Notes: generated by a model not told the origin, from the sequence alone. A stretch of DNA of 64,000 nucleotides from Elusimicrobiota bacterium (GCA_003151975.1 PLZD01000067.1:1143-65142); one strand, 5' to 3'; shown: positions 91 through 43,554, counted from the first letter of the stretch. Made by a program: numbers and translations.

Positions 91-714
91 ATGCAAGCAG
101 AACTCAAGAACGTCAAAGGCGAACCCGTCGGCAAGCTCGAGCTCCAGGAGAAGATTTTCGGCATCAAGCCGATCAGCTCTTTCCTGCACGAGTTCGTCAC
201 TGTGTATGAGGCCAATCAGCGCCTGGGCACGGCTCACACTAAGACCCGCGCGGAAGTCTCGGGCGGCGGCAAGAAGCCTTGGAAGCAGAAGGGCACCGGA
301 CGAGCCCGCTCGGGCTCCAACCGCTCGCCGCTCTGGCGACACGGCGGCATCACTTTCGGTCCCCGCTACAAGGGCAAGCCGCGCCGCGAGATGCCGCGCC
401 AGAAAGCGAAGATCGCCTTGGCCCAGGCCCTGGCGTCCCGCTACGCCGACGGCGCGATCGTGTTCGTCGACAAGATCACGGTCGATGAGGCTAAGACCAA
501 GAACGTCGCCGCGCTCCTGAAGACGCTGGGAGCAACCGGCCGCGTGCTGATCGTTCTCGATCAGCCCGACAAGAACCTGACTCGGGCCAGCCGCAACCTT
601 CCCAACGTCGCGATCCAGCTCGCGTCGGATCTCAACGCCTACATCGTCTTGCGCAGCCACAAACTCGTCGTGACCCAGCCCGCCCTGGAAAAGCTCGGCG
701 CCCGCTGGAATTAA
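91..714 (+). CDS. rplD: 50S ribosomal protein L4
   Basis: 207 aa; KKPWKQKGTGRARSGS...PLWRHGG motif typical of L4; operon position. Confidence 0.93.
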   Translation: MQAELKNVKGEPVGKLELQEKIFGIKPISSFLHEFVTVYEANQRLGTAHTKTRAEVSGGGKKPWKQKGTGRARSGSNRSPLWRHGGITFGPRYKGKPRREMPRQKAKIALAQALASRYADGAIVFVDKITVDEAKTKNVAALLKTLGATGRVLIVLDQPDKNLTRASRNLPNVAIQLASDLNAYIVLRSHKLVVTQPALEKLGARWN

Positions 715-4914: not shown

Positions 4915-5643
4915 TTGATCATGGCAGAGAAGGAAAAAAACGCAGCTGAAGTAGAGCGGGCCGCTAAGAAGGCCCTGGCCGCCAAGAAGGCCGGTCTTGA
5001 AGCCAAGGCCGCCAAGGCGTCCGGTCCGGCCATCCAGACCTCCGACGGCAGAGAGGTCAAGCACGAGACTCCCCGGCTCAAGAAGAGCTACAAGGAGACC
5101 ATCGTGCCGGCGCTCATGGAGAAGTACGAACTCAAGAACCCATTTCAAGTGCCGAGTCTCGAGAAGATCGTGGTCAACATCGGCGTCTCCGACGCGCGCG
5201 ACAACATCCAGAACCTCGATGTGGCGCGCGAAGAGCTCGCGATGATCACGGGCCAGTGGCCCCAGGTCCGCAAGGCCTCTAAATCCATCTCGAACTTCAA
5301 GCTGCGCGAGGGGATGCCCATCGGCGTCCGCGTGACCCTGCGCGGCGACCGCATGTGGGAGTTCATGGACCGTCTGATCTCGACGGCGATACCCCGCATC
5401 CGGGATTTTCGCGGCCTCGAGCCCCGGGGCTTCGACGGCCACGGGAACTACAACCTCGGCTTGAAAGAACAGCTGATCTTCCCCGAGGTCAACGTCGAGA
5501 AGTCGCCCAAGCAGCGCGGCATGAACATCACCGTCGTGACCTCCGCTGTCAACGACGAGATCGGCATGGACCTGCTCCGCCACATGGGCATGCCCTTCAA
5601 GCAGGTCCAGGAAGCAGAGACCGCCGCCGCCGGGAGAAACTAG
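4915..5643 (+). CDS. rplE: 50S ribosomal protein L5 with ~55 aa Lys/Ala-rich N-terminal extension
   Basis: 242 aa; L5 core begins near [18 protein letters not shown]...; no alternative in-frame start closer to the core. Confidence 0.88.
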
Positions 5644-24616: not shown

Positions 24617-25197
24617 AAGAATACGCGAAGCTCGTAGGTCTTGCGAAATCCGCCGTCGACAACGGCTTCTCGCGCGTGGGCAAGTCGCTCGACAAGGGCA
24701 GCCCCGTCGACGAGGCGCTGATGCTGCTGTCGGCGCGCGCCGTCGCGGTCGGCAACGCGATCGTCGTGCTGGCGCAAGAGTCGCTGTCCAACGAAGCCTT
24801 GCCGCTCTTGCGCTCGCTCTTTGAACTTGCGGCCGCTATGCGCTGGCTCGTCGCGGAGGACCGCGAGAAGCGCGCGCGGGAAGTGCTCGCCGAGGCGCGC
24901 GCCTCCGATTGGGAGATGCTGTGGAAGACTTCCCGACTCAAAGAGCGGCTGCCGCTGCTTGAGTTGGCCGACGGCGACGCGCGGCGCGCGCTTGGGTTAT
25001 GCGTGGATTTCATGTGCGCCAACACGCAAGGCCTGCCGTGGGGGCACGTTTTTGAAGGGAACAAGGAGACCGGAGTAACGTCGGCCGAGCTCTTGAGGCT
25101 CGCGGCGATCGCCTCCGGTCATGTGGTCAAAGCTTTGGACGCGCGGTGGCCAGGGAAGTTCGAGGGCGCCGAACAACTGTGGGAGAAGGCAAAATGA
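24613..25197 (+). CDS. hypothetical cytoplasmic helical protein, translationally coupled between murI and rho
   Basis: 194 aa; ATGA overlap with the murI stop and ATGATGA overlap with the rho start; no family recognised. Confidence 0.55.
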   Translation: MKEYAKLVGLAKSAVDNGFSRVGKSLDKGSPVDEALMLLSARAVAVGNAIVVLAQESLSNEALPLLRSLFELAAAMRWLVAEDREKRAREVLAEARASDWEMLWKTSRLKERLPLLELADGDARRALGLCVDFMCANTQGLPWGHVFEGNKETGVTSAELLRLAAIASGHVVKALDARWPGKFEGAEQLWEKAK

Positions 25198-26342
25198 TGA
25201 GCGACGACAGAAGGGGCGGGCAAGGCGGTCAGGGCGGCGGAGGCGGCGGCCAGGGCGGGCAAGGCGGCGGATCCGGTGGATCCGGCGGGTCCGGCGGGTC
25301 CGGCCAGCATCACAACCGCGGCGGGCGCAACCGTCACCGGCACCACCGCGGCGGCCAAGGCGGCGGCCAGCAAGGCGGCGGCCAGCAGGGCGGCGGCCAG
25401 CACTTCAATCGCCCTCCCCAGCACAACCAGGGCAACCGCAGCAATCCCTCGCCCGCGCGCGCCTCGTCCAACGTCGTCAGCGACATCGAACGCGCCTACA
25501 ACGCCAAGACCCCGATCGATCCCAAGGAGTGGATCCAGCTGGAAAAAGGCAGCACGGAAATCTCGATGCGCGCCATGGACCTGCTCTGCCCGATCGGCCG
25601 CGGCACGCGCGGCCTCATCGTCGCGCCCCCAAAGGCCGGCAAAACGACCTTCCTCAAGCAGATCTCGAACGCCGTCCACGGCTTCGACCCGAAGATCAAG
25701 CAGTACTGCCTGCTCATCGACGAGCGCCCCGAGGAGGTCACGGATTTTAAGCGTTCGGTGCCCGCCGAGGTCTTCGCCTCCTCCTCCGACCAGAGCTACG
25801 AGAAGCACATCACGGTCGCCAACGAGCTCATCAAGCTCGCCGTCGAGCAGGCCAGCACCGGGCAGGACGTGTTCATACTGCTGGATTCCCTGACGCGGTT
25901 GGCCCGCGTGCACAACCAGTTCGCCACGGGCAATCGCACGATGACCGGCGGCTTGGATTCGCGCGCGATGGAAGTTCCGCGCCGATTTTTTGGCGCCGCG
26001 CGCAAGCTCGAGGAGGGAGGGTCTCTCACCATCTTGGCGACCATACTCGTCGACACCGGCTCGCGCATGGACGAGGTCATCTTCCAGGAGTTCAAGGGCA
26101 CTGGCAACATGGAACTCGTGCTCTCGCGTCAGGCCGCCGACATGCGCATCTTTCCGGCGATGAAGGTGCGCGAGTCGGGCACGCGCAAGGAAGAAAAGCT
26201 CCTGCCGCCCGCGATCATCGAGGGCGTCTGGAAGCTGCGCCGGGCTCTGGCCGACAAGGGCGACATCGACGCGTTGAAGTCCCTCGTCGAGGCCCTGCGC
26301 GTGCACAAGACCAACCACGCCTTCCTCGCGGCTCTCAAGTAA
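25194..26342 (+). CDS. rho: transcription termination factor Rho, atypical: N-terminal OB-fold RNA-binding domain replaced by ~100 aa Gly/Gln/Arg/His-rich low-complexity region
   Basis: 382 aa; GGAGAAGG SD; ATPase core PIGRGTRGLIVAPPKAGKT, Q- and R-loop regions, C-terminus KTNHAFLAALK; the region N-terminal to IDPKEW is low complexity (GGQGGQGGGGGGQ, RGGRNRHRHHRGG). Confidence 0.85.
   Translation: MMSDDRRGGQGGQGGGGGGQGGQGGGSGGSGGSGGSGQHHNRGGRNRHRHHRGGQGGGQQGGGQQGGGQHFNRPPQHNQGNRSNPSPARASSNVVSDIERAYNAKTPIDPKEWIQLEKGSTEISMRAMDLLCPIGRGTRGLIVAPPKAGKTTFLKQISNAVHGFDPKIKQYCLLIDERPEEVTDFKRSVPAEVFASSSDQSYEKHITVANELIKLAVEQASTGQDVFILLDSLTRLARVHNQFATGNRTMTGGLDSRAMEVPRRFFGAARKLEEGGSLTILATILVDTGSRMDEVIFQEFKGTGNMELVLSRQAADMRIFPAMKVRESGTRKEEKLLPPAIIEGVWKLRRALADKGDIDALKSLVEALRVHKTNHAFLAALK
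25269..25305 (+). repeat. GGATCCGGN-type 9-nt microsatellite encoding (GSG)n in the Rho N-terminal tail
   Basis: ggatccggtggatccggcgggtccggcgggtccggc. Confidence 0.8.
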
Positions 26343-28916: not shown

Positions 28917-29029
28917 GGCGCCAAAGCAACGCTGCGTCCTTTGACCCAAGCGAAGTTAGGCCCATTAACCGCTTCGTTTGGCCCAAAGGGCCCGAGCCCC
29001 GGGTCCATTTGCAGTGCAATAATGGGTCT

Positions 29030-32000
29030 ATGTTGCGGCGCTTCATTGCTACCGTTGTCTGCGCGGCCCTTATCGTGGCCTGCCCCGGCATCGAGTCATA
29101 CCACGCGATAGCCGGCGAGCTCGGCGAGATCAATGTTGGCGCGCGGCGCGCGCCCGCCCTTCCCGCTCTGCCGACCGCGATCCTGCCCGGCATCGCCAAC
29201 ATCACCCAGCTCTCGCAGACGCCGGGAAATCTAGCCACGGTCACCGAGGTCGCAACAGTTCATTCCGCGATCGCGACGCCTGGCGCGGCCGCTGCAAACA
29301 CTTCTTCGATCTCGAACGCCTCGGCGGTTGCTCAGCCTGAGACGGCGGAGGTTGAAAATGCGGGAAAACTGATCACACCGGAGGTCTTGGCGGGACTCAA
29401 CGCCACGACTAAGGGCGTCTCGGAAGCCGTCGAGGCCCTCGCCAAGCCCGATCTGAGCGCCGAGGGCGCGCACGCCGTCGGCGTCCGCCTCGAAGGCGCG
29501 GTTTCGCCTGCGGTCTCCGCCGAAGAGATTTCTCCCGCGGCCTCGGGCTTCTCAAATTTCTCGGGTAATGTTCATGCCAAGCAGAAGCGCGGCCTCGTCC
29601 AGTCCGTCGGCTTCTTTGCGAAAGCCAAGGGCTTCGTCCGCACAATTTCGGTCGCCGCGGTTCTGACGATCGCAACACTCGGCGGCCCCGTGCTGGCCCA
29701 GACCGTTCCGCAGGGCCCGGCGCCGGCCGGCCAGCAGCAGCAGGTTCCAGCTCCCGCCCAGCCCGGCGCGCCCGTGCTCGGCGCGCCTCAAGACACGGTC
29801 CAGGCCGAGGAGCCCGCGCCCAAGCAAATCGGACCCATCTCGGCGACCATCGCGATCCAAGGCCAGAACATGACGGTCGGCGATCGCTTCCACATCGCGC
29901 TCACGCTGACCAACAGCTCGGATAAGCCGGTCACGATCGCCAATCTGCGGAACTCGCTCAACGACGCCCTGCCCACGGACGTCGAGCTGCAGATGAACTC
30001 AGGGTCGGACGCCGTCACGCTAAAGCCCGGCGAGACGCAGACGGTCGTCTTCGAGACCATCGCGTTTGCCTCGGGCGACATCGCGATGGGCGGCCCGCTG
30101 ATTTTCAACGCGCAGCTCAATGGCCAGGCCGCCGAGATGCAGGCCATACTCGCCGACGGCGCGATCACGGTCAAGTCGGTCCTCACGCCCGATTGGAAGA
30201 AGATCGGCTTCAAGGATATCTACAGCGTCCTGCGCCAGGACGTGCCGCTCTGGGCGTGGCTGGCGGCGATCCCGCTGCTGCTGTCGCTGCTCGTCGCCGG
30301 CGAGCGCGTGCTCGCGGCCCAGCGCCGCGGCGCCAAGGTCCTCTCGGTGGGCCAGCCGCTGCTGGTCTCGACGCGCGCGCGCATGAAAGCGCTCGAAGGC
30401 GCCTTGGAGCAAAACGACGCGGCGTTCTACGCCGAGTACTACTCCATACTCTCGACTTTCCTGATCGACTCGCACGGCTTGTCCGTCAAGGAGCGCGACG
30501 CCAAGACCTTGATCTCGGACCTCAAGAAGGCTAAGAAGCTTTCCTCGGGCCAGCTTAAGGTCGCCTCAGATTTAGCGTTCTCAGCGGAAGCCGCGCGGTT
30601 CGGCGGCCGCGCTACGACGGCCGAGCAGCGCTCCGCCGACCTCGCGGCTCTGTCGTCTCTCGTGGACAACATCGCGGGTGCTTCGAAGACGCAGAAAACC
30701 GAAGGCCTACACAGCCTCGGCGGGCCGATGACGGGCCTGCAGTTCGGCAACCCCTACGCGCTGCTGCTCTTTTTGCCGCTGGCTGGGTATCTGGCTTGGA
30801 AGTTCATAGGCCGCAAGCAGGCCAGCGCCCAAGCCGCTTACCCGCTCTCGACGCTTTCCTCGGTCTCGCCGCGCAAGAGTTTCCGCCAGCGCTTCGGTTG
30901 GCTGACGAAGGGCCTTCGCGCCGCCGCCGTTTCCTTAATTCTGCTCGGCATCGCCGATCCCCAACTCGGCGTGCGCCGCCAGGAGACCATCACGCCGTCG
31001 ACCGACACTGAGCTCATCATCGACGTGTCGGGTTCGATGGACGAAGCCTTCAACGGTTCCGGCAGCCCCAGCAAGCTGGTGGCCGCCGAGGAGGCGATGA
31101 AGGCCTACATCAACGAGCAGCGGCGCGGCACGCAGAACCGCGTGGGCTTGGTCACTTTCTCGGACGAGTCTTACGTCGACATCCACCTCACTCAGGACTA
31201 CGACGCGCTGATCGCGCACTTGAAGGAGCTGCATACGATTTCTTCGACGGCGATCGGCAAGGGCATACTGACCGCGACGGGCCAGTTCCTCGAGGCCAAC
31301 GCCTACGAGCTGACCTCGCAGGACGACCCGCGCATCATCGAGGTTCAGCGCCTCATCCGCACCGAAGGCCTCGGCGCCGCTCTCGAGTATGCCAAGCCCT
31401 ACCCGGACCTCATGGACAAGATCGTCCGGCCCGACCGCAAGAAGGTCATCGTCCTTTTCACGGACGGCGAGTCCAACACTGGCCTTGAGCCCATCCCGGC
31501 CTCCGAGATCGCGGCGAAACTTGGCGTGCGCATCTACACGGTCGGCATCGCTCCCAAGGGCGGCACGGGCGTGGGCTACGATGAGAACACGCTGGTCACG
31601 GTGGCCAAGAACACCGGCGCGCAGTTCTTCCGGGCCGATGACGCCGACCGCATGCGCGAGATCCTGCTCGAAATCAATCGCCTCGAGAAGAGCCCGACCA
31701 AGATCGTGTCGGCCGTATCGGTCCAGAGCTACCAGCAATGGTTCATCATGCTGGCGCTGCTGGCGCTGGGCTTGGAGCTTGGCCTGGCCAACACGAGATT
31801 GCGCGTGCTGTCGGGCTTCTTGATGTTCACTTTGCCGTTCGGCAGCGTCGTCAATTTCAACCCGGCGCAGCAGCCTGCCGCGATCGTGCAGACCGTCGAC
31901 GCCCAGGCCCCGGCCGCGGAATCCGCTTTGCCGACCACCGGCGTGCCCGCCGAGGTCGCCGCGGCCAATCTGCTCTTCAACTCGGGCCGGTATGACGAAG

Positions 32001-35000
32001 CGCTCAAGGCCTACGCCAAGGCGCTCGAGAAGTATCCCGACATGGCCGAGCTCTACTACAACATGGGCAACGCCTACTTGAAGCTGGGCGACGTCGACCG
32101 CGCCAAGATCAGCTACGGCAAGTTTTTGAGCCTCAAACCCGACGCGAAGCTGGCTTCGAAGGCGATCTACAACATGGGCAACGCCGCGCTTTCCGCCAAG
32201 GACGTCGAAGGCGCTGTCGACAATTATAAGGAAGCCCTGCGCCGCGATCCGAACAACGACCGCGCCAAGTGGAACCTTGAGGTCATTAAGGCGCTCCAGA
32301 AAGAGCAGCAGCAGCAGCAATCCCAGCAGCAGCAGAAACAGCAGCAGAAGGAAGGCAAGCAGAAGCAGAACGGCAAGCAAAAGCAGAAAGGCGACCAGAA
32401 GGGCGATCAAAAGGGCGACCAGAAGGGCGATCAGAAAGGCGACCAGAAGGGAGACCAAAAGGGCGATCAGCAGGGCAAGCCCGGCGACCAGAAAGGCGAC
32501 GCCCAAGCCAAGCCCGGCGACAAAGAGAAGAGCGGCGCCGACCAGTTGACCGACAAACTCGGCGACCAGGAAAAGAAGGAAGGCGAGGCCGCGCGCAAGG
32601 CCATCCCGCGTAAGGGCGACAAGGTTTGGGGCCTCCTCGGACTGCCGCTGGCGGCCGGCGGCTCAACCGCCTTGGCTTTCGGCTCAGCCTGGATGCTCTG
32701 GGCGCTGGCTTTCGGCCTGCCCGTCGTCGCCGGCCTCATCGCCTACGGCATCCACAAGAAGATTCAAGCCGCCAAGCAGCTGACTCCGGGCACGGCGCCC
32801 GCGGGTTTTGCTTCCTGGTGGGGACGCAACGCTTTCCTGCGCAAGTCGGCGCTGATGATCACGGCGGCAGCCCTCCTTGGCCTGTCAGCGGCCAACCCGA
32901 AGAGCGGCTACAAGGACGAGCGCCTCAACTTCGGCGGCAAGGACATCGAGGTGGTGCTCGATAACTCGCTCTCCATGCTCTACGCCGAGGACGGCCGCGC
33001 CGACCGCACCCGCAAGGAGCTCACCGATTTCATCACGCACATGCAGGGCACCGACCGCATCGGCCTGGTGGTCTTCGCGGGCTCAGCAAGGACCGCGGCG
33101 CCCATCTCAATGGACTACGGCAATTTCGAGTACAAGCTGCAGAGGTTGGAAGTCGAGTCGCGCGGACTTAAATCCGGCTCGGACCTAGCCGCGGCGGTGC
33201 AGTTTGCCGCCAAGTCCTTCGAGGACGTCAAGCAGCTCGAGGGCCGCCAAAGGATCGTCATCATCATCTCCGACGGCGACATTTTCAACGAGGAACTCGA
33301 GGGCGCCGTAAAATCAGCGCAAGAGCACCACATCACGGTCTACACGATCGGCGTGGGCACGCCGGCCGGCTCCAAGATCAAGGTCCCGACCGAGGACGGC
33401 AAGGGCACCGAGTACGTCATCGACGAGAAGACCGGCCAGCCGGCCGTCACGACACTCGTCGAGGAGCCCCTGCGCCAGATCGCCTCGCGCACCGGCGGCG
33501 CCTACTTCCGCGCAGGCTCAGATTCCTCGATGAACCGCATTCTCGAGCAGATTTCGACGCTGCAGAAAGGCGAGAAGGGCGACACGATCAAGTCCCCGCG
33601 CGGCGTGGCGTCATGGTTCTTGTGGCCGACCATGCTCTTGCTGCTGCTCGAGATGCTGCTGCCGAGCAAGTCGGTGCTCAAGGACGACCGCAAAGAGAAA
33701 GCGCGCGGCGTAGCGGTTCTCGGCTTGGCCTCCTTGCCTTTGTCGGGTTATGCTCTGATGCTGCCTTTCGCCGTGCTCACGACCGTCGCCGTGGGCTTGC
33801 TTGCCGCCGACTATTGGAGCGGCGGAGCGATCCGGCGCAAGATCGCCTGGGAGCTCGAGCGCCGCCGCAAGCTCGTGGAAAACGGCGTCTTGACCGACGC
33901 CGCGGGCTTGTTCGATCTGCGCGAGACCGACGCCCCGAAGCTGTCGGCCTTCCTCAAGTCTTGGAGCGAGGCCGATGAGGCTGGAAAGAAAATCTTGTCC
34001 AACGAGGCGGTCTTAGACGAACAGCTGTGGCGCCAGAAGCTCGCCGCGGCCTTCGTCTACGGCAGCGCGCCGGAGACGCAGGAAGCGCTGCTCACGATGA
34101 TGGCGCGCACCGCGCAGAAGCGCCTCGAGCCGATGGCTCCGGTCGCCGAGCAGTTGCTCGCGCGGCGCGGCCGCCTGCCCTGGCTCGACCATGTCGACGC
34201 GGCGCGGCGCCTCGCGCGCCTCGCGCAGGCCTTCCTCGATAATTCGAAGCCTGAGAATCACGCCGCTTTGGTTTCGCTGCTCTCTCACCCCGACGCCGAG
34301 GTCCAGCAGGCCGCGCGCCAGGCGTTAGGCAGCGAAGTCCCGGCGCCGGCCCTCAAACGCGGGTTTTTCTTCAACTGGCGCAAATGGCTCTCGGTCGCCC
34401 TCTCGACTCTGATGCTCGCGTCCTCCATGACTTGGGCGGGCTTCTCCGGCTACAAGACGACGCAATTCTTCGAGGAGTCGGCCAAGGCGCGGGACTTCTC
34501 GATGCGGACCTTCTACCGCGAGGACATGTTCGTCTTCTCGGACCACTACGCCGACGACCGCATCACGACCGACGTCCTGCCGGCTCTCAAGGCGTGGCAA
34601 GAGAACCCGCAGTCCGCGGGCGCGGGCCTCGAGCGCGCACTGACGGTTCTCTCGCAGTCCCCCGATCCCAAGGCCGACAACGTGCTCGAAGTTATCCTTA
34701 AGCACGGCGACATCCTGCCGCTCACGCCGAAGGCGGAGTATATGCTGCTCCACACCCTCGTCATCCGCGACAACGACGACGTCTGGCGCTTCATGGAGGA
34801 CCACCTCCAGAAGAGCGCGCGCAACCCGCGCGCCGTCATCCTGATGGAGAAGATGATCGCCATAGGTGCTGCCGAGGGCAACGAGAAGGTTTTCCAGAAC
34901 ATCTTCCATTTCCTGAAGAGCCCCAGCGAGCAGATTCAGCAGGTGGCCACGGCCGCGATCGCGGCGTCGCTGTCGGCGCCCGACAAGGTGGCCAAGATCT

Positions 35001-38000
35001 TCGACCGCCTGACCGACGTGCAGTCGCGCTACGCTCAGGACCCCGAAATGAATTTGTGGGTGGAAAACTTCGTGCTCCAGCGTCTGGCGACGGCCGAGGC
35101 CAAGGACATCGACTCGGCCAAGGCGCGGGGCCTCATCGACAAGATTTTGGACGCGGGGTCGCCGTGGGCGGCGATGCGCGCTCAGGCGCTGGCCGCCCAA
35201 GCCGCGCAGCAAGCCCAGCAGCAGCCTCAAGCCGGCGCCGCCCCGGGCGCCGCTCCCCAGGCCCAGCAGCAAGCTCAGATTCCGCCGCCTTTCATCTTGA
35301 TCGTGTTCGGCCAGATGAACGACGCCGAGCAAGCTTTCGTTTCGAACGGCCAGGCCGTCCCCGGGCCGCTGGCCGACATGGTCAAGTACGCGGTCAACCG
35401 CACGATGACGCAGCTCATTAAGGAGGGCGAGGCGAAGTTCGGCGATTTGCACAAGCGTCTCATCGAAGCCGGCGTCGTCCTGCCCGATACTGAGAACTCC
35501 TACGGCGGCGGCTACGACGACGACTACGAGGGGCGCGGTTGGGGCGGCTACCGCGGCGGTCGCGGCGGCAGTTATTCCAGCACGTCGCAGAACTACCGCG
35601 AGCTCTACAAGCTCCAGCACATCCGCGATTTCGCCAAGCAGCTTTCCGAGGCCGCCCAGACGAGCGCCGCGGCCGACAGCGCATCGGTGAAGCCCGAGAC
35701 CCTCGAGTATCTCGACCGCGCCGCCCAGGCTTTGAAAATCATGGAGCCTCTGGGGCAAGCGTCGGGCATGCTCGATGGCGGCAGCGTGGGGGAGAAAGCG
35801 GCCGACGAGGTCAACAAAGTCCTCGACGCCACGGCCTCCAAGCTCACCGGCAGCGGTTTCCTCAACGCCCTGCGCGCCAAAAACGTCGCGCCCAGCAACG
35901 GGGTGGATTCCGGAGCCGCGCGCTTCCTCGAGACCTACACTTTCGAGAACATCGAGGCGATCAAGGCCGTGATCCGGGAGATCGCGGCATCCGGCAAGGG
36001 CTGGGACTACCAGGGCAACCAGCGGACTTTGCTGCTCAGCGAGAAGCAGGCGCTGGCCGCGGCCCTCGACGAGCTCACCGCCGCCGAAGCCAAGGTCTAT
36101 CCGGACAAGGCTAAGCCCGCGGCAGCGAGCGATTTCTGGAAGACGCTGGAGACGCCCGGCGAAGAGAGCCTGGCGTTGGCGCGCTTGAGCGTGGGCGCCG
36201 CCGCGCACGCGGCCGATGCCGAGTTCCAGCTGCGCGCGCTCAACTACCTGACGGCGCACGCCGACAAGAATTCCAATCCCGACGAGCTTTCCGAGATCAT
36301 CGCCCAACTGGCCAAGGCCGTCGAGAAAACCGACAAGGCCCCCGAGGTCCTCTCGATTCTCGCGCGCGTCGTCGACGGCAGGGCAGATAGCGATCCGCTG
36401 ACCGCCGCCATCCGAAAAGAGTATCAGCGCCAGGCGTCCGTCACGATCGCGGACGCGGTCTCAGGCTTCGGAAACCTGAGCCAGAAGCTGATCGATCTCA
36501 AGGTCCGGCCTTCCTCTTATTCCGATAAGCCGTACAAACTGATCGATCTCAAGGTTTTCCTTAAGGCGGTCGAGGACGAGGCGGCCGCCGTGGCCGGGCC
36601 GAATATGAGCGAGGACGCAAAGAAAGCGGCCGCTCGGGCACGGCTGATGGTGCCCAAGATCATCGAGCTGGGGACCAAGGTCGGCATCACGCCGGGAGAC
36701 TCCCCGGCCGATCTCGTCGCCGGTCCGGTCAACGATATCCTGCACCAGGGCTGGCAGCTCTTCGACGGCTCGACCTTCCTCGAGGCCATGCGCCGGCAGG
36801 GACTCGAGCCCGCGGGCAGCTCGACCGACATCTACACGGGCTACTACCAGGCTTACTCCAAGGACAGCCTCGAGAAGATCCTGAAATGGCTCAAGAACGT
36901 GAAGGCTTTGGGCGACGGCTGGAAATCGCAAGACATGTCCACCAAGCCCCTGAGCGACAAGGAGAAGGAATACCTCGACAAGGCCATCAAGGGCATCCAG
37001 GACCAGATCGACAACTATCCGAAAGCCGGGCCCGCCGCGACCGAAAAGAAAGTGTTCCACGGCATGGCGCTCGTCGGCTTGGGAACGCTCGGCACGGCGA
37101 TTTCCTGGATCGGAACCGGCCTGCTGATCGCGGCCGCGGCGGTGGTGATCTACTACGTGGTCCGCGCGGCGCTTAAGAAGACGAAGGCCGCGAGTCTGAC
37201 CCCCGTTTTCAACGCGGCGGCCGAAAGAACCGCGCCGGGACTCGACGGCAGATTTAAGAAAATCGAGATCACGGCCAAGCGCGTGGCCAACTCGGTGGCC
37301 GGCGGCAACTTTCGATCCGTTTTCATCGGCGCGGGCGGCACGGATTTCGCGGAAAGCAAGCCCTACGCCGGCGAGGACCTGCGCGACGTCGACTGGAAGA
37401 CCACCGCGCGCCAGGGCGAGCTCTACGCCAAGAAGTACGAGCTCGAAAAAGACATGCCGCTCATGCTGCTCATCGATCTCTCGCGCTCGGCCCAGTTCGG
37501 CACGCGCGGCGAATCCAAACGTGGCGTTATTGAAGACGCTTCCTCGGTTCTCGCGCTGGCGGCCGCCAACACCAACCTGCGCGTCGGCGCCATCATCTTC
37601 TCCGACAAGGTCGAGGCCTACATCCCGCCGCAATCCGGCGTCAACCACGCCCGCGAGATCGTGCGCCGCGTGCTCGCGTTTGATCCTAAGGGCCAAGCCA
37701 CGGACCTCAAGCCTGCGCTCGGTCTAGCGCTTAAGGAACTGCGTTCCCGGTCCATGATCGCGGTCGTCTCGGATTTCATCGCTCCTGATTTCAAGAATTC
37801 GCTGATGGCGCTCTCAGCGCGCCACGACCTGCGCCTGATCCGCGTCTCCGATCCCGCCGAGACCGCGCCCCTGCCAAAGGTGGGCCTGGTGCTCGTGCGC
37901 GACGCCGAGACCGGCGAGGTGCGCTACGTCGACACTTCCGATACGCGCTTCCGCACCGAGCACGCCGCCTTGCTGGCCAAGCAGGAAGCCGCCCGCCAGG

Positions 38001-38098
38001 CCGCTTTTACCGCCGCGCGCACCGTGCCGCTCACGCTTTCGACGGAAGGGGACCCTCTCGAGGCCCTGGCCGTGTCGCTTAGCCCCAAGAAAAAATGA
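29030..38098 (+). CDS. giant polytopic membrane protein (~3022 aa): single-polypeptide fusion of BatD-like, BatA-like VWA, BatC-like TPR plus Q/K tail, BatB-like VWA, ~1080 aa HEAT-like helical region and C-terminal DUF58 (MoxR-partner) domain
   Basis: Uninterrupted 9.07 kb ORF. Start is ATG 29030 (MLRRFIATVVCAALIVACPG signal peptide) or TTG 29009. MIDAS motifs DVSGSMDE at 31022 and DNSLSM at about 32960. TPR repeats at about 31961-32293. Q/K-rich (KGDQ)7 at 32387-32470. DUF58 signature KPYAGEDLRDVDWKTTARQGELYAKKYELE at about 37360. At least 14 hydrophobic TM segments flank the modules. Confidence 0.85.
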   Translation: MLRRFIATVVCAALIVACPGIESYHAIAGELGEINVGARRAPALPALPTAILPGIANITQLSQTPGNLATVTEVATVHSAIATPGAAAANTSSISNASAVAQPETAEVENAGKLITPEVLAGLNATTKGVSEAVEALAKPDLSAEGAHAVGVRLEGAVSPAVSAEEISPAASGFSNFSGNVHAKQKRGLVQSVGFFAKAKGFVRTISVAAVLTIATLGGPVLAQTVPQGPAPAGQQQQVPAPAQPGAPVLGAPQDTVQAEEPAPKQIGPISATIAIQGQNMTVGDRFHIALTLTNSSDKPVTIANLRNSLNDALPTDVELQMNSGSDAVTLKPGETQTVVFETIAFASGDIAMGGPLIFNAQLNGQAAEMQAILADGAITVKSVLTPDWKKIGFKDIYSVLRQDVPLWAWLAAIPLLLSLLVAGERVLAAQRRGAKVLSVGQPLLVSTRARMKALEGALEQNDAAFYAEYYSILSTFLIDSHGLSVKERDAKTLISDLKKAKKLSSGQLKVASDLAFSAEAARFGGRATTAEQRSADLAALSSLVDNIAGASKTQKTEGLHSLGGPMTGLQFGNPYALLLFLPLAGYLAWKFIGRKQASAQAAYPLSTLSSVSPRKSFRQRFGWLTKGLRAAAVSLILLGIADPQLGVRRQETITPSTDTELIIDVSGSMDEAFNGSGSPSKLVAAEEAMKAYINEQRRGTQNRVGLVTFSDESYVDIHLTQDYDALIAHLKELHTISSTAIGKGILTATGQFLEANAYELTSQDDPRIIEVQRLIRTEGLGAALEYAKPYPDLMDKIVRPDRKKVIVLFTDGESNTGLEPIPASEIAAKLGVRIYTVGIAPKGGTGVGYDENTLVTVAKNTGAQFFRADDADRMREILLEINRLEKSPTKIVSAVSVQSYQQWFIMLALLALGLELGLANTRLRVLSGFLMFTLPFGSVVNFNPAQQPAAIVQTVDAQAPAAESALPTTGVPAEVAAANLLFNSGRYDEALKAYAKALEKYPDMAELYYNMGNAYLKLGDVDRAKISYGKFLSLKPDAKLASKAIYNMGNAALSAKDVEGAVDNYKEALRRDPNNDRAKWNLEVIKALQKEQQQQQSQQQQKQQQKEGKQKQNGKQKQKGDQKGDQKGDQKGDQKGDQKGDQKGDQQGKPGDQKGDAQAKPGDKEKSGADQLTDKLGDQEKKEGEAARKAIPRKGDKVWGLLGLPLAAGGSTALAFGSAWMLWALAFGLPVVAGLIAYGIHKKIQAAKQLTPGTAPAGFASWWGRNAFLRKSALMITAAALLGLSAANPKSGYKDERLNFGGKDIEVVLDNSLSMLYAEDGRADRTRKELTDFITHMQGTDRIGLVVFAGSARTAAPISMDYGNFEYKLQRLEVESRGLKSGSDLAAAVQFAAKSFEDVKQLEGRQRIVIIISDGDIFNEELEGAVKSAQEHHITVYTIGVGTPAGSKIKVPTEDGKGTEYVIDEKTGQPAVTTLVEEPLRQIASRTGGAYFRAGSDSSMNRILEQISTLQKGEKGDTIKSPRGVASWFLWPTMLLLLLEMLLPSKSVLKDDRKEKARGVAVLGLASLPLSGYALMLPFAVLTTVAVGLLAADYWSGGAIRRKIAWELERRRKLVENGVLTDAAGLFDLRETDAPKLSAFLKSWSEADEAGKKILSNEAVLDEQLWRQKLAAAFVYGSAPETQEALLTMMARTAQKRLEPMAPVAEQLLARRGRLPWLDHVDAARRLARLAQAFLDNSKPENHAALVSLLSHPDAEVQQAARQALGSEVPAPALKRGFFFNWRKWLSVALSTLMLASSMTWAGFSGYKTTQFFEESAKARDFSMRTFYREDMFVFSDHYADDRITTDVLPALKAWQENPQSAGAGLERALTVLSQSPDPKADNVLEVILKHGDILPLTPKAEYMLLHTLVIRDNDDVWRFMEDHLQKSARNPRAVILMEKMIAIGAAEGNEKVFQNIFHFLKSPSEQIQQVATAAIAASLSAPDKVAKIFDRLTDVQSRYAQDPEMNLWVENFVLQRLATAEAKDIDSAKARGLIDKILDAGSPWAAMRAQALAAQAAQQAQQQPQAGAAPGAAPQAQQQAQIPPPFILIVFGQMNDAEQAFVSNGQAVPGPLADMVKYAVNRTMTQLIKEGEAKFGDLHKRLIEAGVVLPDTENSYGGGYDDDYEGRGWGGYRGGRGGSYSSTSQNYRELYKLQHIRDFAKQLSEAAQTSAAADSASVKPETLEYLDRAAQALKIMEPLGQASGMLDGGSVGEKAADEVNKVLDATASKLTGSGFLNALRAKNVAPSNGVDSGAARFLETYTFENIEAIKAVIREIAASGKGWDYQGNQRTLLLSEKQALAAALDELTAAEAKVYPDKAKPAAASDFWKTLETPGEESLALARLSVGAAAHAADAEFQLRALNYLTAHADKNSNPDELSEIIAQLAKAVEKTDKAPEVLSILARVVDGRADSDPLTAAIRKEYQRQASVTIADAVSGFGNLSQKLIDLKVRPSSYSDKPYKLIDLKVFLKAVEDEAAAVAGPNMSEDAKKAAARARLMVPKIIELGTKVGITPGDSPADLVAGPVNDILHQGWQLFDGSTFLEAMRRQGLEPAGSSTDIYTGYYQAYSKDSLEKILKWLKNVKALGDGWKSQDMSTKPLSDKEKEYLDKAIKGIQDQIDNYPKAGPAATEKKVFHGMALVGLGTLGTAISWIGTGLLIAAAAVVIYYVVRAALKKTKAASLTPVFNAAAERTAPGLDGRFKKIEITAKRVANSVAGGNFRSVFIGAGGTDFAESKPYAGEDLRDVDWKTTARQGELYAKKYELEKDMPLMLLIDLSRSAQFGTRGESKRGVIEDASSVLALAAANTNLRVGAIIFSDKVEAYIPPQSGVNHAREIVRRVLAFDPKGQATDLKPALGLALKELRSRSMIAVVSDFIAPDFKNSLMALSARHDLRLIRVSDPAETAPLPKVGLVLVRDAETGEVRYVDTSDTRFRTEHAALLAKQEAARQAAFTAARTVPLTLSTEGDPLEALAVSLSPKKK
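32387..32470 (+). repeat. in-frame tandem 12-nt repeat (aagggcgaccag)x7 encoding (KGDQ)7 within the megaprotein
   Basis: Seven consecutive near-identical 12-mers; lies inside a Q/K-rich low-complexity tail after the TPR block. Confidence 0.9.
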
Positions 38099-39615
38099 AC
38101 CGAGGTAACGCCATGAAGACGACGCTCTCGCAAATGATGAAGACTGCGGCCTTGCTGGGCCTGTTCGCCCTGCTCTGTCCCCGCGCGGCGCACGCTGTTG
38201 ATTTCGCCGAGCGCTCCGCGGTGACGCCCGGCGTCCAGCTCAAGCTTGTGACGCTCGACCCGAAGATCGGCGCGCTCGGCAAGCCCGGCGACGGCATCAG
38301 CATCGACCCCCTCGCGGCCCAGCTTCACAATGTCCTGACCGCGGCCGGCCTCTTGACCGAGGCCCCCGGCCAGATCGCGATCCTCACGATCCCTCAGCCC
38401 TTGGCGACGATTTCCAACGGCCCTAAAGCCGCCAACGACGTCGGGACTCCGGCGGAGGCCTCGCAGGCGCGTCTTGCCGAGATCACTAAGACGGTTGTGG
38501 ATATGCCCGACATCTCGAAGGCCGAAGGCACGGATGCCTCCGGCGCTGGACGCACGCTCTCCGACGCCGTCACCGGAGAGAAGACGGTCCACGCCGGCGC
38601 CGTCGAGGCCGAGGCGACGCCGACGGCTCCCGCTAAGCCGCTCAAGCAGCAAATCACCGAGGGCAAAGCCGTCGTCGACGGCATCCGCTCCGAAGTCAGC
38701 AAGGTCATCGTCGGCCAGAATGAAATGATCAACTCGATCATCATGACGATGATCGCGCGCCAGCACGTTCTGCTCGAAGGTCTGCCCGGCGTCGGCAAAA
38801 CCGAAACCGCCAAGGCCTTCGCCGACGCGATCGACGGCTCGTTCCAGCGCGTGCAGGGCACTTCCGACAAGCTGCCCTCCGACATCCTCGGCACCGAGGT
38901 CCTTCAAGAGGACCCGGCCACCGGCAAGAAGTTCTGGGAGCTCTCTAAGGGCCCCATCTTCACGAACATCCTGCTCGCCGACGAAATCAACCGCATGCCG
39001 CCCAAGGCCCAGGCGTCCTTGCTCGAAGCCATGGCCGAAGGCCGCGTGACCATCGGCCGCCAGACGGTCGACCTGCAGCGCTTCACGGTGCTCGCCACGC
39101 AAAACCCCGTCGAGCAGGACGGCACCTACCGCCTGCCCGAGGCGCAGCTCGACCGCTTCATGTTCAAGGTGCTCGTGCCTCAGCCGAGCGCGTCGGATTT
39201 GAAGGTCATCATGGAGCGCAACCGGTCGAAGGAGAACCGCCCGAAAGCGTCCAAGGTCACGAACTTGGCGCAGTTGGACGACATCCGGCGCACCGCCGAG
39301 CAGATCCCGATGGACGCTCAGATCGAGGACTACATCATCAAGATCGTCATGGCCGCCAAGGAGCACGCCGATCTCAAGGATAGTGTGGAATACAGCGTCT
39401 ACACGCGCGCGGCGATCTTCATGGCGCAGGCCGCCCGCATCCACGCCTTGATGGAAGGGCGCGATTGGGTGAGCCCCGCGGATGTGCGCGCGGTAGCACC
39501 CCTCGTCATGCGGCACCGCATCGTGCTCAACTACCAGGCCGCCGGCACGACGTCCGACCAGGTCATCACGAAGATTCTCGACTTGGTCGCTCCGCCGAAG
39601 GTCGCGGCCAAGTAA
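38095..39615 (+). CDS. MoxR-family AAA+ ATPase (AAA_3) with N-terminal signal-anchor and ~190 aa Ala/Pro/Thr-rich extension
   Basis: 506 aa; ATGA overlap with the megaprotein stop; Walker [10 protein letters not shown], Walker B LLADEINR, sensor ATQNP; N-terminal hydrophobic segment [20 protein letters not shown]. Confidence 0.88.
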
Positions 39616-39637: not shown

Positions 39638-39666
39638 CGAGGCCCCCGAAAGGGGGCCTTTGTTTT
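39638..39666 (+). terminator. rho-independent terminator after moxR
   Basis: GGCCCCC-gaaa-GGGGGCC perfect 7 bp GC stem followed by TTTGTTTT. Confidence 0.85.
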
Positions 39667-39722
39667 GCCGGCAGAGTTTTCTCATATACAACAGACCGGC
39701 TTGTTCGTATGATCTGTGCTGC

Positions 39723-41471
39723 ATGCGGGTTCTTTGCTCAGGCCTTCGTTTCCTTTGCGTCGGCGTCGTTCTCGCGTCTGCGTGCGGTTCCGGCGATCAA
39801 CTGCGCGCGGCGTCGCCCGCAGCCTGCGAACAGTCGTTGATCTCGTCGTGGCAGCAGTCTCTCCCCTCGGTGGGATTTGCGAGCGCCGCGTCGGCGGCCG
39901 CGTATGACGCCGAGATCGCGGCCCTTCTTGATCGTCCCTGGATGGGGCATCCGCTGTCCACGTATCCGGGAGGACGCTGGCCCGCCGTCTCGGTGGCGGT
40001 CGTCCAGCAAGGCAGGCTCGTCTTCGCCAAGAGCTATGGCTTTGCGAATATCTCGCAGCCTCAGCTGGCCCACCCCGATGACCTCTTCCGTCTGGCAAGC
40101 GACAGCAAGCAGATCACCGGCGCCGTGATCTTGAAGCTGATCGCCGACGGTCAATCGGTCGACGGCGATCCGGCGCATCGGCTGACTCTGCAGAGCAAGG
40201 TCTTCCAGATCCTGGCCAGTCCGCCCGGTGCCCTCGCGCCGCTCGCGGGGCCCGGGACGCTTCATGCGGACCTCGACGACATCACGGTCGAGGATCTCCT
40301 GCACCACGCAGGCGGATGGAACGGCGGCGTCGGCGATCCGGTAGACTACGCCGGCAAGCCGGGGGCCGTCCTTCCGCCGACCGACAAGGATGTGGTCCGG
40401 TACATGATGAACCAGCCGGTCCAGCACAGGCCGCATGGCAGCACTTACTGCTACTCGAATTTTGGCTACAACGTGCTGGCGACTTTGGTCGAGAAGATAA
40501 CAGGCCGATCCTATGAGAGCGTCGCAAAAGACCTCGTGCTGCGGCCCTTGGGCATCACGCGCATGAAAATCGGTGATTCGCTCAAATCCGGTGCCGGCGA
40601 GGTCACGTACTACGCGGCCGAGGGCGGTGGAAACTTGAGGTCGCTGTTTCCAGAGATGACCGGGCCCACGGTCTCCGGAGAGGACGCGCCCTACGGCAGT
40701 TGGTCTCTCTACGCGGGCCGGGGCGCGGGCGGCTGGATTGGTTCTGCGATGGACATGGTGCGTTTTCAGATCGGCGTGGATGGGACGGGCCCGGTCCAGC
40801 TTTTCTCCTCGCCGCAAGCGATGGTCTCGAGCGCCAATATCTCGCCTAACGCCTGCTACCCAAATTACAATCCGGCGACGCAGTGGTACAACGCCGGCTG
40901 GATCGTCGTCAAAAACGGCGTGTGGGGACATGACGGCGGCGCCACGGGCGCGGGAAGCAACACGACGAAGCTTCCCAACGGCGACGGCTACGCGGCCGTC
41001 ATCAATATGTCCGCAGCGCCCCCGAAGGGAGAAGTCTTCGATTGGGACGGGGCTCTCTCGAGAGCTTACCATCGCACGCTCGCCAACGGCGGCTCGTTTT
41101 TAAAAACCGACCTTTTCGATCAATTTGGAGAGTGGACCGCGTGGCGCGGCAAGGCCGGCATTTCATCGAACGCCGCTCATGATCTTGGCGCCGGCTGCGC
41201 GTACAAGGGGAAAAACTATTCCGCGTGCTATCCTTCGCGAATCGAGGGACGGCAGACCCGGGCGGGGGCAAGCTACCGGGCCGAGTTCGTGCCGCTGCAT
41301 GCCGGAGGCGAGGTTAAATACTCTTTGGGAGCCGCCTGCAATGACTTCGCGGCGATGGATAAGAAATATTTGAGCGGCGGTTATCACCGAGTCAACCTTC
41401 AATGGTTCGAGGACCCGGCGGGGCGCATGCGCTTTCAAAGCGTGTGGGTCAAGGCGGCCGACCGGCGTTGA
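39723..41471 (+). CDS. beta-lactamase-fold serine hydrolase lipoprotein (PBP4/AmpC/esterase family) with ~200 aa C-terminal extension
   Basis: Lipobox LASAC; SDSK (SxxK) and YSN motifs; ATG about 63 nt into the track ORF (MRVLCSGLRF...). Confidence 0.75.
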   Translation: MRVLCSGLRFLCVGVVLASACGSGDQLRAASPAACEQSLISSWQQSLPSVGFASAASAAAYDAEIAALLDRPWMGHPLSTYPGGRWPAVSVAVVQQGRLVFAKSYGFANISQPQLAHPDDLFRLASDSKQITGAVILKLIADGQSVDGDPAHRLTLQSKVFQILASPPGALAPLAGPGTLHADLDDITVEDLLHHAGGWNGGVGDPVDYAGKPGAVLPPTDKDVVRYMMNQPVQHRPHGSTYCYSNFGYNVLATLVEKITGRSYESVAKDLVLRPLGITRMKIGDSLKSGAGEVTYYAAEGGGNLRSLFPEMTGPTVSGEDAPYGSWSLYAGRGAGGWIGSAMDMVRFQIGVDGTGPVQLFSSPQAMVSSANISPNACYPNYNPATQWYNAGWIVVKNGVWGHDGGATGAGSNTTKLPNGDGYAAVINMSAAPPKGEVFDWDGALSRAYHRTLANGGSFLKTDLFDQFGEWTAWRGKAGISSNAAHDLGAGCAYKGKNYSACYPSRIEGRQTRAGASYRAEFVPLHAGGEVKYSLGAACNDFAAMDKKYLSGGYHRVNLQWFEDPAGRMRFQSVWVKAADRR

Positions 41472-43429: not shown

Positions 43430-43554
43430 GCGGGCTCATACTATCAAAAGGAGCGCTTAGGCCAATAGGGCCGATCTTGCCGGGACCAAAGATGAGCCGT
43501 CGTTGGGTCCATTGGCCCAAGCTGGCATGGCGTGAAACCCCTACAATGGGGTTG

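Follow-up and report, generated by a model that had tools for sequence, protein, structure and literature searches.

A conserved Elusimicrobiota megaprotein joining Bat-type modules to DUF58, encoded beside an extended MoxR ATPase

The 64,000-nucleotide stretch of Elusimicrobiota bacterium GCA_003151975.1 analysed here (PLZD01000067.1:1143-65142, called the window below, with positions counted from its first letter) carries on its plus strand a gene for a megaprotein of 3022 residues, followed by a gene for a MoxR AAA+ ATPase. From N- to C-terminus the megaprotein consists of a leader module, an ORF3-type module, BatA, BatC, BatB, a family-specific all-alpha sequence and DUF58, and the pair of megaprotein and MoxR is conserved across Elusimicrobiota. 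The explanation that we favor, with a probability of roughly 0.7 on the sequence evidence, is that the two genes form an operon for an all-in-one MoxR-associated Bat system, which would operate by a mechanism resembling that of NorQ/NorD. The Bat/MoxR-DUF58-VWA system is widespread, and both its function and its architecture are still unsettled more than two decades after its discovery.

A two-gene unit conserved across Elusimicrobiota

An earlier note on this DNA had described one open reading frame (ORF) of about 3020 codons, starting at TTG 29009, in which several Bat components are fused. The single ORF was confirmed. It runs unbroken on the plus strand from 29009 to 38098 (3029 residues when counted from the first TTG), with neither stops nor start-like intergenic spacers between the modules, and relatives have the same architecture. 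The G+C content at third codon positions (GC3) lies between 0.78 and 0.89 in each 900-nt slice with the frame constant, and because it is uniformly high in one frame nothing points to a hidden frameshift. The TTG itself is an unlikely start, since the homologues begin at the equivalent of ATG 29030 (MLRRF...), from which the megaprotein has 3022 residues. Residue numbers given here count from this ATG, whereas the quoted Pfam and NCBIfam coordinates count from TTG 29009 and are therefore 7 higher. The megaprotein stop is TGA 38096-38098, and an ATG at 38095 does overlap it (ATGA), as had been noted; the use of that ATG as the MoxR start did not hold up, however, as the start matching that of other species is ATG 38113, 14 nt past the stop and with GAGG 8 nt upstream. 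MoxR thus probably starts at 38113, and the overlapping ATGA probably does not couple its translation to that of the megaprotein. The stop is followed by the MoxR ORF and then by a terminator-like hairpin, so that the unit comprises two genes. The features of both are compiled in Table 1.

The same fusion, which the earlier note had suggested seeking in other genomes, was found at 29 loci when one genome per GTDB species was scanned with the central region. All but one are titled Elusimicrobia or Elusimicrobiota (28 loci), the remaining one being a 3.9-kb contig titled "bacterium" only. By tblastn of the window modules, module order is identical in every complete locus, and wherever the sequence of a related locus continues beyond the megaprotein gene MoxR lies downstream. 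The megaprotein is one ORF of 2,780-3,420 aa in about 22 of the 29 loci, with no split into separate bat genes either there or in the window, and these represent about 22 independent assemblies from different studies that hold one open frame at 30-70% identity. Module lengths are tightly kept (286-290 aa for DUF58 and 350-357 aa for BatB, for example), variation being found only in the linkers and in repeat number, and the junction segments between modules are conserved among the homologues as well.

Protein searches gave a corresponding picture. Among the matches listed in a full-length search of 5.8 billion proteins there were 7 full-length relatives of 2,753-3,389 aa with 37-46% identity and the same Pfam content, one of them annotated merely as "VWA domain-containing protein" in an Elusimicrobia metagenome-assembled genome (MAG); low-complexity words dominated the candidate list, so this search is uninformative on other fusions. 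On the contigs of two of the full-length relatives the extended MoxR comes next and the remaining neighbours are different. An exhaustive HMMER search with a profile of the central region over 1.84 billion cluster representatives matched 56 proteins, of which the long ones contain VWA and variously TPR and DUF58, with the central match correspondingly placed, and the rest are fragments; the central region is therefore confined to the megaprotein architecture. These long proteins include the three most divergent ones scanned with Pfam (P0040, P0043 and P0053).

The conserved single ORF with MoxR always next to it upholds the description of a Rosetta-stone fusion, and provides good evidence of that type that the ORF3-type module, BatA, BatB, BatC and DUF58 would work as one physical unit. 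By linking the MoxR adaptor DUF58 covalently to ORF3, BatA, BatB and BatC, the single chain is the strongest genomic evidence yet for one assembly, and the fusion fixes the relative stoichiometry of the joined Bat components in Elusimicrobiota. The 1:1 stoichiometry that had been proposed for all components cannot reach MoxR, which is encoded by a separate gene and is hexameric in the studied members of its family. Modules on one chain need mutually consistent membrane orientations, which constrains topology models of the canonical proteins, and one polypeptide with one ATPase makes an attractive structural target.

Modules of the megaprotein and of MoxR

For reference we used five annotated canonical operons, from Parabacteroides, Prevotella, Cetobacterium, Leptospira and Persicobacter (loci L032-L036), in which the gene order is moxR-DUF58-ORF3 (or DUF4381)-batA-batB-batC-batD(-batE). 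The earlier identification of BatA-, BatC- and BatB-like modules and of a C-terminal DUF58 was substantiated throughout by these comparisons. With residues 566-925, all five canonical BatA proteins lead the BLAST list over their full length (E 1e-31 to 3e-18) in a reciprocal comparison; the Pfam BatA_N match in the window (577-651, E 6e-3) stays below the cutoff with 17.3 bits versus 25.9, and passes it in family member P0053 (31.2 bits). Residues 940-1200 find canonical BatC as their best BLAST matches (E 5e-15 and 8e-13), TPR families exceed the Pfam cutoff at about 980-1090, and canonical BatC likewise ends in a Q-rich/acidic low-complexity tail. Residues 1195-1550 have BatB proteins as their three best BLAST matches (E 8e-24 to 4e-22), closely followed by BatA, and NCBIfam BatB_Lepto spans 1278-1548 (E 1e-23) under its strict cutoff; the NCBIfam BatA, BatB and BatC_Lepto matches in the megaprotein are all under their cutoffs. 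Residues 2735-3022 show 35% identity (E 3e-60) to the DUF58 protein of P. distasonis, and Pfam DUF58 (PF01882) matches over its cutoff at 2787-2994 (E 4.7e-58). Pfam VWA or VWA_2 recognizes three stretches of the megaprotein (E 1e-36 to 1e-42), and in both VWA domains as well as in DUF58 the DxSxS residues of the metal ion-dependent adhesion site (MIDAS) do not vary among 8 homologues.

The DNA encoding the Q/K-rich tail of BatC (32297-32476) consists of tandem repeats, including 7.8 copies of the 12-nt unit CAGAAGGGCGAC, which translates as GDQK. The tail measures 82-154 aa among the homologues, and the tandem repeats are likely the site of this length variation.

The first module had been taken for BatD. 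Its beta-sandwich, transmembrane (TM) segment and tail stand, and AlphaFold models it with one beta-sandwich, a TM helix and a helical bundle at a predicted local distance difference test (pLDDT) score of 74; the assignment to classical BatD does not. Whereas VWA, TPR, DUF58 and AAA_3 were all recovered in the profile scans, Pfam BatD (PF13584) and DUF4381 gave no match at E<=10 on this segment. In canonical BatD proteins (450-860 aa) several PF13584 BatD/DUF11-like sandwiches follow a signal peptide and precede a TM helix and a tail, whereas the megaprotein has one sandwich. The module is closest to the unnamed ORF3 that lies between DUF58 and batA in the canonical operons, whose product of about 235-370 aa has a single weak BatD/DUF11-like sandwich between its signal peptide and its TM helix and ends in a weakly DUF4381-like tail. 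A hidden Markov model (HMM) built from 27 Elusimicrobiota first modules matches the whole length of Prevotella ORF3 (27 bits, E 4.5e-9 among 37 database sequences) and touches BatD weakly, in the TM-tail region only. Using hhalign, the first module aligns with a four-member ORF3 alignment at 93.9% (E 1.5e-7, 249 columns) versus a probability of 1.5% with a five-member BatD alignment; this value, the lack of PF13584 and the single sandwich rule out a classical multi-sandwich BatD. The signal-like segment H1, flanked by 3.3 K/R before and 0.5 after, is placed like the signal peptide of canonical ORF3. A profile search with the first module in the 5.8-billion-protein set returned two more Elusimicrobia fragments and no annotated BatD. 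The ORF3 counterpart of B. fragilis, bf2420, has been counted as a second BatD-domain gene (PMC5700661). BatE likewise left no trace, as Pfam gave no SH3 match and tblastn with BatE reaches only the BatC TPR region of the window. Multi-sandwich BatD and BatE are thus absent from the megaprotein, and no further bat genes were found within the 64-kb window.

The central region extends over residues 1598 to about 2680, and about 1,100 residues of the megaprotein are family-specific. It had been described as a HEAT-like region of about 1080 aa, and is indeed large, uncharacterised and found in this family only; membership in the HEAT family was not sustained. The Pfam HEAT, HEAT_2 and Arm profiles score E 0.05-0.16 (13-14 bits versus cutoffs of 20-28), and apart from these no Pfam or NCBIfam family at E<=10 and no sequence relative in the PDB was found. 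The AlphaFold model (pLDDT 76) is all-alpha, and taken as a whole it gives generic HEAT/TOG/ARM-like solenoid fold matches only, so that "HEAT-like" would be acceptable as a loose description of the predicted fold only. The model falls into three all-alpha blocks, namely cenA (1598-1780), cenB (1811-2063) and a C-terminal part, with the hydrophobic segment H11 (1787-1807) between cenA and cenB. Within the C-terminal part, repeat 1 (2105-2370) and repeat 2 (2445-2680) align with an hhalign probability of 100% (E 2.8e-42), which identifies this part as an internal duplication; self-BLAST gave nothing, and hhalign of sub-alignments was needed. The repeated domain of ~240 aa includes a small beta-hairpin and has no specific structural or sequence match. 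The region homologous to repeat 2 has a median length of 509 aa in the homologues versus 236 in the window, as would be expected if most of them had a third copy of the domain. A G/Y/D/R-rich low-complexity insert, SYGGGYDDDYEGRGWGGYRGGRGGSYSS, is located within repeat 1 (35498 to about 35590) and is missing in repeat 2; AlphaFold leaves it disordered. In comparisons of HMMs with the canonical Bat proteins, cenA, cenB and cenC gave no significant match and were rejected as diverged ORF3, BatD or BatE.

The MoxR of the window is recognized by Pfam AAA_3 (E 1.1e-52) and AAA_lid_2 (E 1.2e-18), with these domains beginning at about 38668, and shows 41% identity (E 2e-81) to MoxR of the canonical operons. 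Sixteen MoxR family members share conserved Walker A and B, sensor 1, Arg finger and sensor 2 motifs. Where complete, the MoxR proteins of this family measure 458-621 aa versus 309-331 aa in the canonical operons, due to an N-terminal extension of 185 aa in the window and 144-309 aa across the family for which no Pfam or NCBIfam family was found at E<=10. The extension begins with a signal-like leader (K-rich n-region, hydrophobic core of ~15 residues and AxA↓Q) that is present in most loci and in every lineage examined, the most divergent included, and continues with a P/A/S/T/L linker that is mostly uncharged and with a short motif that is conserved. In the canonical operons no hydrophobic segment exceeds the threshold in four of the five MoxR proteins, and that of L035 has one (residues 33-49). 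In two lineages there is an extra hydrophobic stretch of ~40 aa between the leader module and the AAA+ domain (residues about 230-268 in L001/L020 and about 217-251 in L017), a probable helical hairpin, which in L017 is K/R-rich on both flanks.

The N-terminus of the megaprotein (29030-29629) resembles a paralogue of the MoxR leader module. Aligned by hhalign, the two sets of leaders give 95% (E 2.6e-8), a score that may partly reflect generic signal-peptide composition. The xPGxxxYxAxA motif of the megaprotein leader is found in 21 of 27 homologues by regular expression, the version in the window being CPGIESYHA. A second motif shared by the leaders (MPxLSKA...GAGxxLExxLTG) is visible by eye and is not significant, its best score being 4.1 bits versus 1.3 for shuffles.

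Table 1. Positions of the megaprotein, MoxR and their component features in the window
Feature	Position	Strand	Basis or remark
Megaprotein gene, 3022 aa plus stop	29030..38098	+	open frame, GC3, homologue starts
Megaprotein leader H0: RR n-region, hydrophobic core, conserved xPGxxxYxAxA	29030..29119	+	
Low-complexity A/P/S/T/L linker of N-terminal module	29120..29629	+	length 20-245 aa among homologues
Second signal-like segment H1: K/R-rich n-region, hydrophobic core, AxA↓Q	29630..29707	+	charge count, canonical ORF3 N-termini
Single beta-sandwich, ORF3/BatD-DUF11-like type	29837..30229	+	
TPDW motif, TM helix H2, helical DUF4381-like tail (FYAEYY...ARF)	30230..30694	+	
BatA module: pre-segment + BatA_N TM1, K/R loop, TM2, VWA, C-terminal TM	30725..31804	+	Pfam, NCBIfam, BLAST
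MIDAS DVSGSM of BatA VWA	31022-31039	+	
BatC module: TPR repeats + Q/K-rich tail	31922..32614	+	Pfam, NCBIfam, BLAST
(GDQK)n 12-nt tandem repeats within BatC tail	32384-32476	+	
BatB module: pre-segment + TM1, K/R loop, TM2, VWA, C-terminal TM	32615..33679	+	Pfam, NCBIfam, BLAST
MIDAS DNSLSM of BatB VWA	32960-32977	+	
Double-length hydrophobic unit, probable helical hairpin, >4 K/R each flank	33707..33820	+	
cenA: family-specific helical domain, probably cytoplasmic	33821..34369	+	AlphaFold pLDDT 80-90; no Pfam family; positively charged start
H11: conserved single hydrophobic segment, probable TM	34388..34450	+	AlphaFold low confidence there
cenB: all-alpha, invariant SPDPKADN motif	34460..35218	+	
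Repeat 1 of new ~240 aa helical domain	35342..36139	+	hhalign
Repeat 2 of new ~240 aa helical domain	36362..37069	+	hhalign
Last hydrophobic unit, one TM or hairpin, then positively charged flank	37061..37168	+	
DUF58 (VWA-like), C-terminal	37232..38095	+	Pfam, BLAST
DUF58 KPYAGEDLRDVDWK	37358-37399	+	
DUF58 motif DLSRSA	37475-37492	+	
MoxR AAA+ ATPase, 500 aa from ATG 38113; ORF open from ATG 38095	38113..39615	+	
MoxR residues 1-185: signal-like leader, linker, conserved motif	38113-38667	+	
Terminator-like hairpin, strong, intrinsic type	39639..39660	+	closes megaprotein-MoxR unit

Membrane arrangement, proposed mechanism and alternatives

The about 15 or more hydrophobic segments of the megaprotein indicate a polytopic protein of the inner membrane, and in this respect the earlier description of an envelope-spanning complex was not borne out. 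Four of the hydrophobic units are of double length (36-45 residues) and uncharged, and are found before BatA TM1, before BatB TM1, after BatB TM3 and before DUF58. The BatA homologue BB0173 has three TM helices and a VWA domain that is periplasmic by experiment (PMC5700661), and the K/R-rich TM1-TM2 loops of the BatA and BatB modules fit this topology, which by analogy would place both VWA domains in the periplasm. The unit after BatB is probably an in-out-in hairpin, and with more than 4 K/R on both of its flanks cenA would be in the cytoplasm. The flank past the last TM carries a positive charge, and a strong one in P0040 and P0043 (HKPLRARARA), which favors a cytoplasmic DUF58. For the TPR module, the central repeats and the N-terminal leader modules, hydrophobicity and the positive-inside rule did not determine the side of the membrane.

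In the NorQ/NorD system NorQ pulls on the VWA domain of NorD: a finger of this domain is inserted into the AAA+ pore, and a linker becomes twisted and stretched as ATP is hydrolysed (PMC13036017). By the same principle, a cytoplasmic MoxR hexamer would grip the C-terminal DUF58 of the megaprotein and use ATP to pull or twist it. DUF58 is tethered within about 25 residues of the last TM helix, and because of this direct tether force or a conformational change could pass from DUF58 into the membrane-embedded chain. It might thus reach the two periplasmic MIDAS VWA domains, and a client in the envelope would be bound or remodelled by these, by the sandwich and possibly by the new repeat domains. 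The Bat proteins have been proposed to form a complex, and for the canonical systems "Bat function remains elusive" (PMC3557215); aerotolerance, envelope integrity or signalling are candidate outputs here.

Several observations weigh against this explanation. The parity of TM segments from the BatB VWA domain (VWA-B) to DUF58 is ambiguous, and if the double-length units are treated alike DUF58 would come to lie on the VWA-B side. Canonical BatC has a signal peptide, whereas the charge flanks seen here would allow a cytoplasmic TPR module. The leaders of MoxR and the megaprotein resemble cleavable Sec signals and are hard to reconcile with a cytoplasmic ATPase. Finally, the frame changes within the megaprotein gene in three MAGs, L007 (a 3.1-Mb contig), L018 and L027 (a complete genome), and in the closest relative, L003, the leader is out of frame with the remainder owing to a frameshift just past it, around 5200-5300; these changes may be assembly or sequencing errors or real decay.

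An unlikely alternative to a lasting single chain is that the predicted ~330 kDa product is a polyprotein precursor, cut into Bat-sized subunits of fixed stoichiometry by signal peptidase or by a dedicated protease. H1 retains the full signature of a signal peptide with AxA↓Q in nearly all homologues, and the segment past BatA TM3 resembles a BatC signal peptide. The only convincing cleavage motif is nevertheless that of H1, the junctions before BatA, BatB and DUF58 being without one. A candidate protease is at hand in a CPBP(Rce1-like)-trypsin-PDZ membrane protein encoded a few kb downstream in the window and in 11 of the 26 related loci that hold MoxR, but in many loci it is on the opposite strand or absent, so that the link may be plain synteny. 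This gene is at 43477-46527 (+) in the window and at 13733-16216 in L037 and 11117-13600 in L039, with further relatives in L003, L011, L013, L018, L021, L022, L026 and L030; in the most divergent lineages (L037-L039) it overlaps the MoxR stop.

It is very improbable that the machine is exported, with the MoxR leader acting as a functional Sec signal and with MoxR and the C-terminal DUF58 working outside the cytoplasm. The n/h/c structure of the leader with AxA↓Q is like that of other signal peptides of the same genome, it reaches the most divergent family members, and a uniform reading of the hydrophobic units sets DUF58 on the side of VWA-B. All motifs for ATP binding and hydrolysis are strictly conserved, however, and it is because these are under clear purifying selection that we rate an exported MoxR so low; moreover, ATP is not known to be available in the periplasm. 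The positive flank past the last TM (strong in P0040 and P0043) and the L017 MoxR hairpin, K/R-rich on both sides, argue for the cytoplasm, and canonical DUF58 and MoxR are soluble cytoplasmic proteins. No description of a MoxR with its own signal peptide was found in the literature. If MoxR were exported, it would be an extracytoplasmic AAA+ machine needing an unusual energy or nucleotide supply or a nucleotide-independent mode, and the paralogous-looking leader modules of MoxR and the megaprotein would in that case represent a new targeting or docking device specific to Elusimicrobiota.

Less credence still is due to a giant VWA surface adhesin or a MoxR-VWA anti-phage conflict system. VWA/MIDAS domains mediate adhesion in BB0172 (PMC5700661), the megaprotein has low-complexity linkers, and the window MoxR has a secondary bpMoxR match (E 6e-12). 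The best matches, however, are to BatA, BatB, BatC, DUF58 and the MRP-type MoxR of canonical operons, the numerous hydrophobic segments are typical of an inner-membrane protein, the megaprotein has no effector domain, and its neighbours on the chromosome have housekeeping roles (PBP2, RodA, RNase E/G and an amidase). A MoxR-vWA-beta-propeller conflict system in particular was rejected on the basis of these neighbours, of 45.5 bits for bpMoxR versus 178 bits for AAA_3, and of the absence of a propeller and of any PADLOC match to the megaprotein. That mis-assembly, lost stops or frameshift errors joined separate bat genes, or that the gene is a pseudogene, has a negligible probability despite the frame changes in L003, L007, L018 and L027, being effectively refuted by the open frame conserved across independent assemblies, the uniformly high GC3, the conserved junctions and the lack of stops or spacers between modules.

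Among the other genes of the window, an ORF at 25146-26342 (+) looks by eye like transcription terminator Rho extended at its N-terminus by a long G/Q/R-rich stretch of low complexity, and a gene similarly placed upstream of the megaprotein in L037 has an ATP-synt_ab match. Right after the MoxR terminator, 39660-41471 (+) encodes a beta-lactamase/transpeptidase-like protein (PF00144, E 2.7e-40) that is not kept beside the pair in other loci.

Comparison with known systems

The Elusimicrobiota unit shares with the canonical Bat/MRP operon its MoxR subfamily (41% identity), DUF58 (35% identity, E 3e-60), BatA and BatB with the two-TM BatA_N head, MIDAS VWA and C-terminal TM, BatC with TPR and a Q-rich tail, and an ORF3-type module of sandwich, TM and tail. 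It differs in that the five non-ATPase components are in one polypeptide, in the order ORF3-A-C-B-X-DUF58 followed by MoxR, in that multi-sandwich BatD and BatE (TPR+SH3) are missing while ~1,100 aa of new sequence are inserted, and in the N-terminal leader modules that only the two Elusimicrobiota proteins have. The module order had been called roughly the reverse of the operon, which is not the case, as ORF3-BatA-...-BatB keeps the canonical direction; the order is a permutation, in which BatC comes between BatA and BatB and the 3' end is now occupied by DUF58 and MoxR. As a whole, three new domain families come with the megaprotein family, as does an AAA+ ATPase bearing a conserved signal-like leader. 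The central region differs from HEAT/ARM/TOG alpha-solenoids in having no membership in their sequence families.

The principle of such fusions is already known. Published pairwise cases include batB-batC in Leptospira biflexa, bb0170 (BatD+TPR+SH3) in Borrelia, and others in Spirochaeta thermophila and Francisella (PMC3557215, PMC5700661). Two further instances were noticed in our reference operons. In Prevotella (L033, 9719-12295) an 858-aa BatD runs into a TPR block and two hydrophobic segments, its C-terminal part being BatE-like by eye, and a separate batE is not annotated. In Persicobacter (L036, 7904-9631) BatB has 575 aa and a separate batC is not annotated, consistent with a BatB-BatC fusion; this protein has no TM segment past residue 331, which would place its C-terminal part in the cytoplasm. 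The pairwise fusions have in common with the megaprotein that adjacent bat genes are merged in one frame, implying physical association, but they join two adjacent components and never DUF58, whereas in Elusimicrobiota there are five including DUF58, plus new domains. We found no description in the literature of a five-component fusion including DUF58, new domains and a leader-bearing MoxR.

With NorQ/NorD, CbbQ/CbbO and RavA/ViaA the Elusimicrobiota pair shares a hexameric ATPase of the MoxR class matched with a VWA/MIDAS partner. Those systems have soluble adaptors with defined clients among soluble or membrane enzymes, whereas in Elusimicrobiota the adaptor is the C-terminus of a polytopic protein of 3,000 aa with two more VWA domains.

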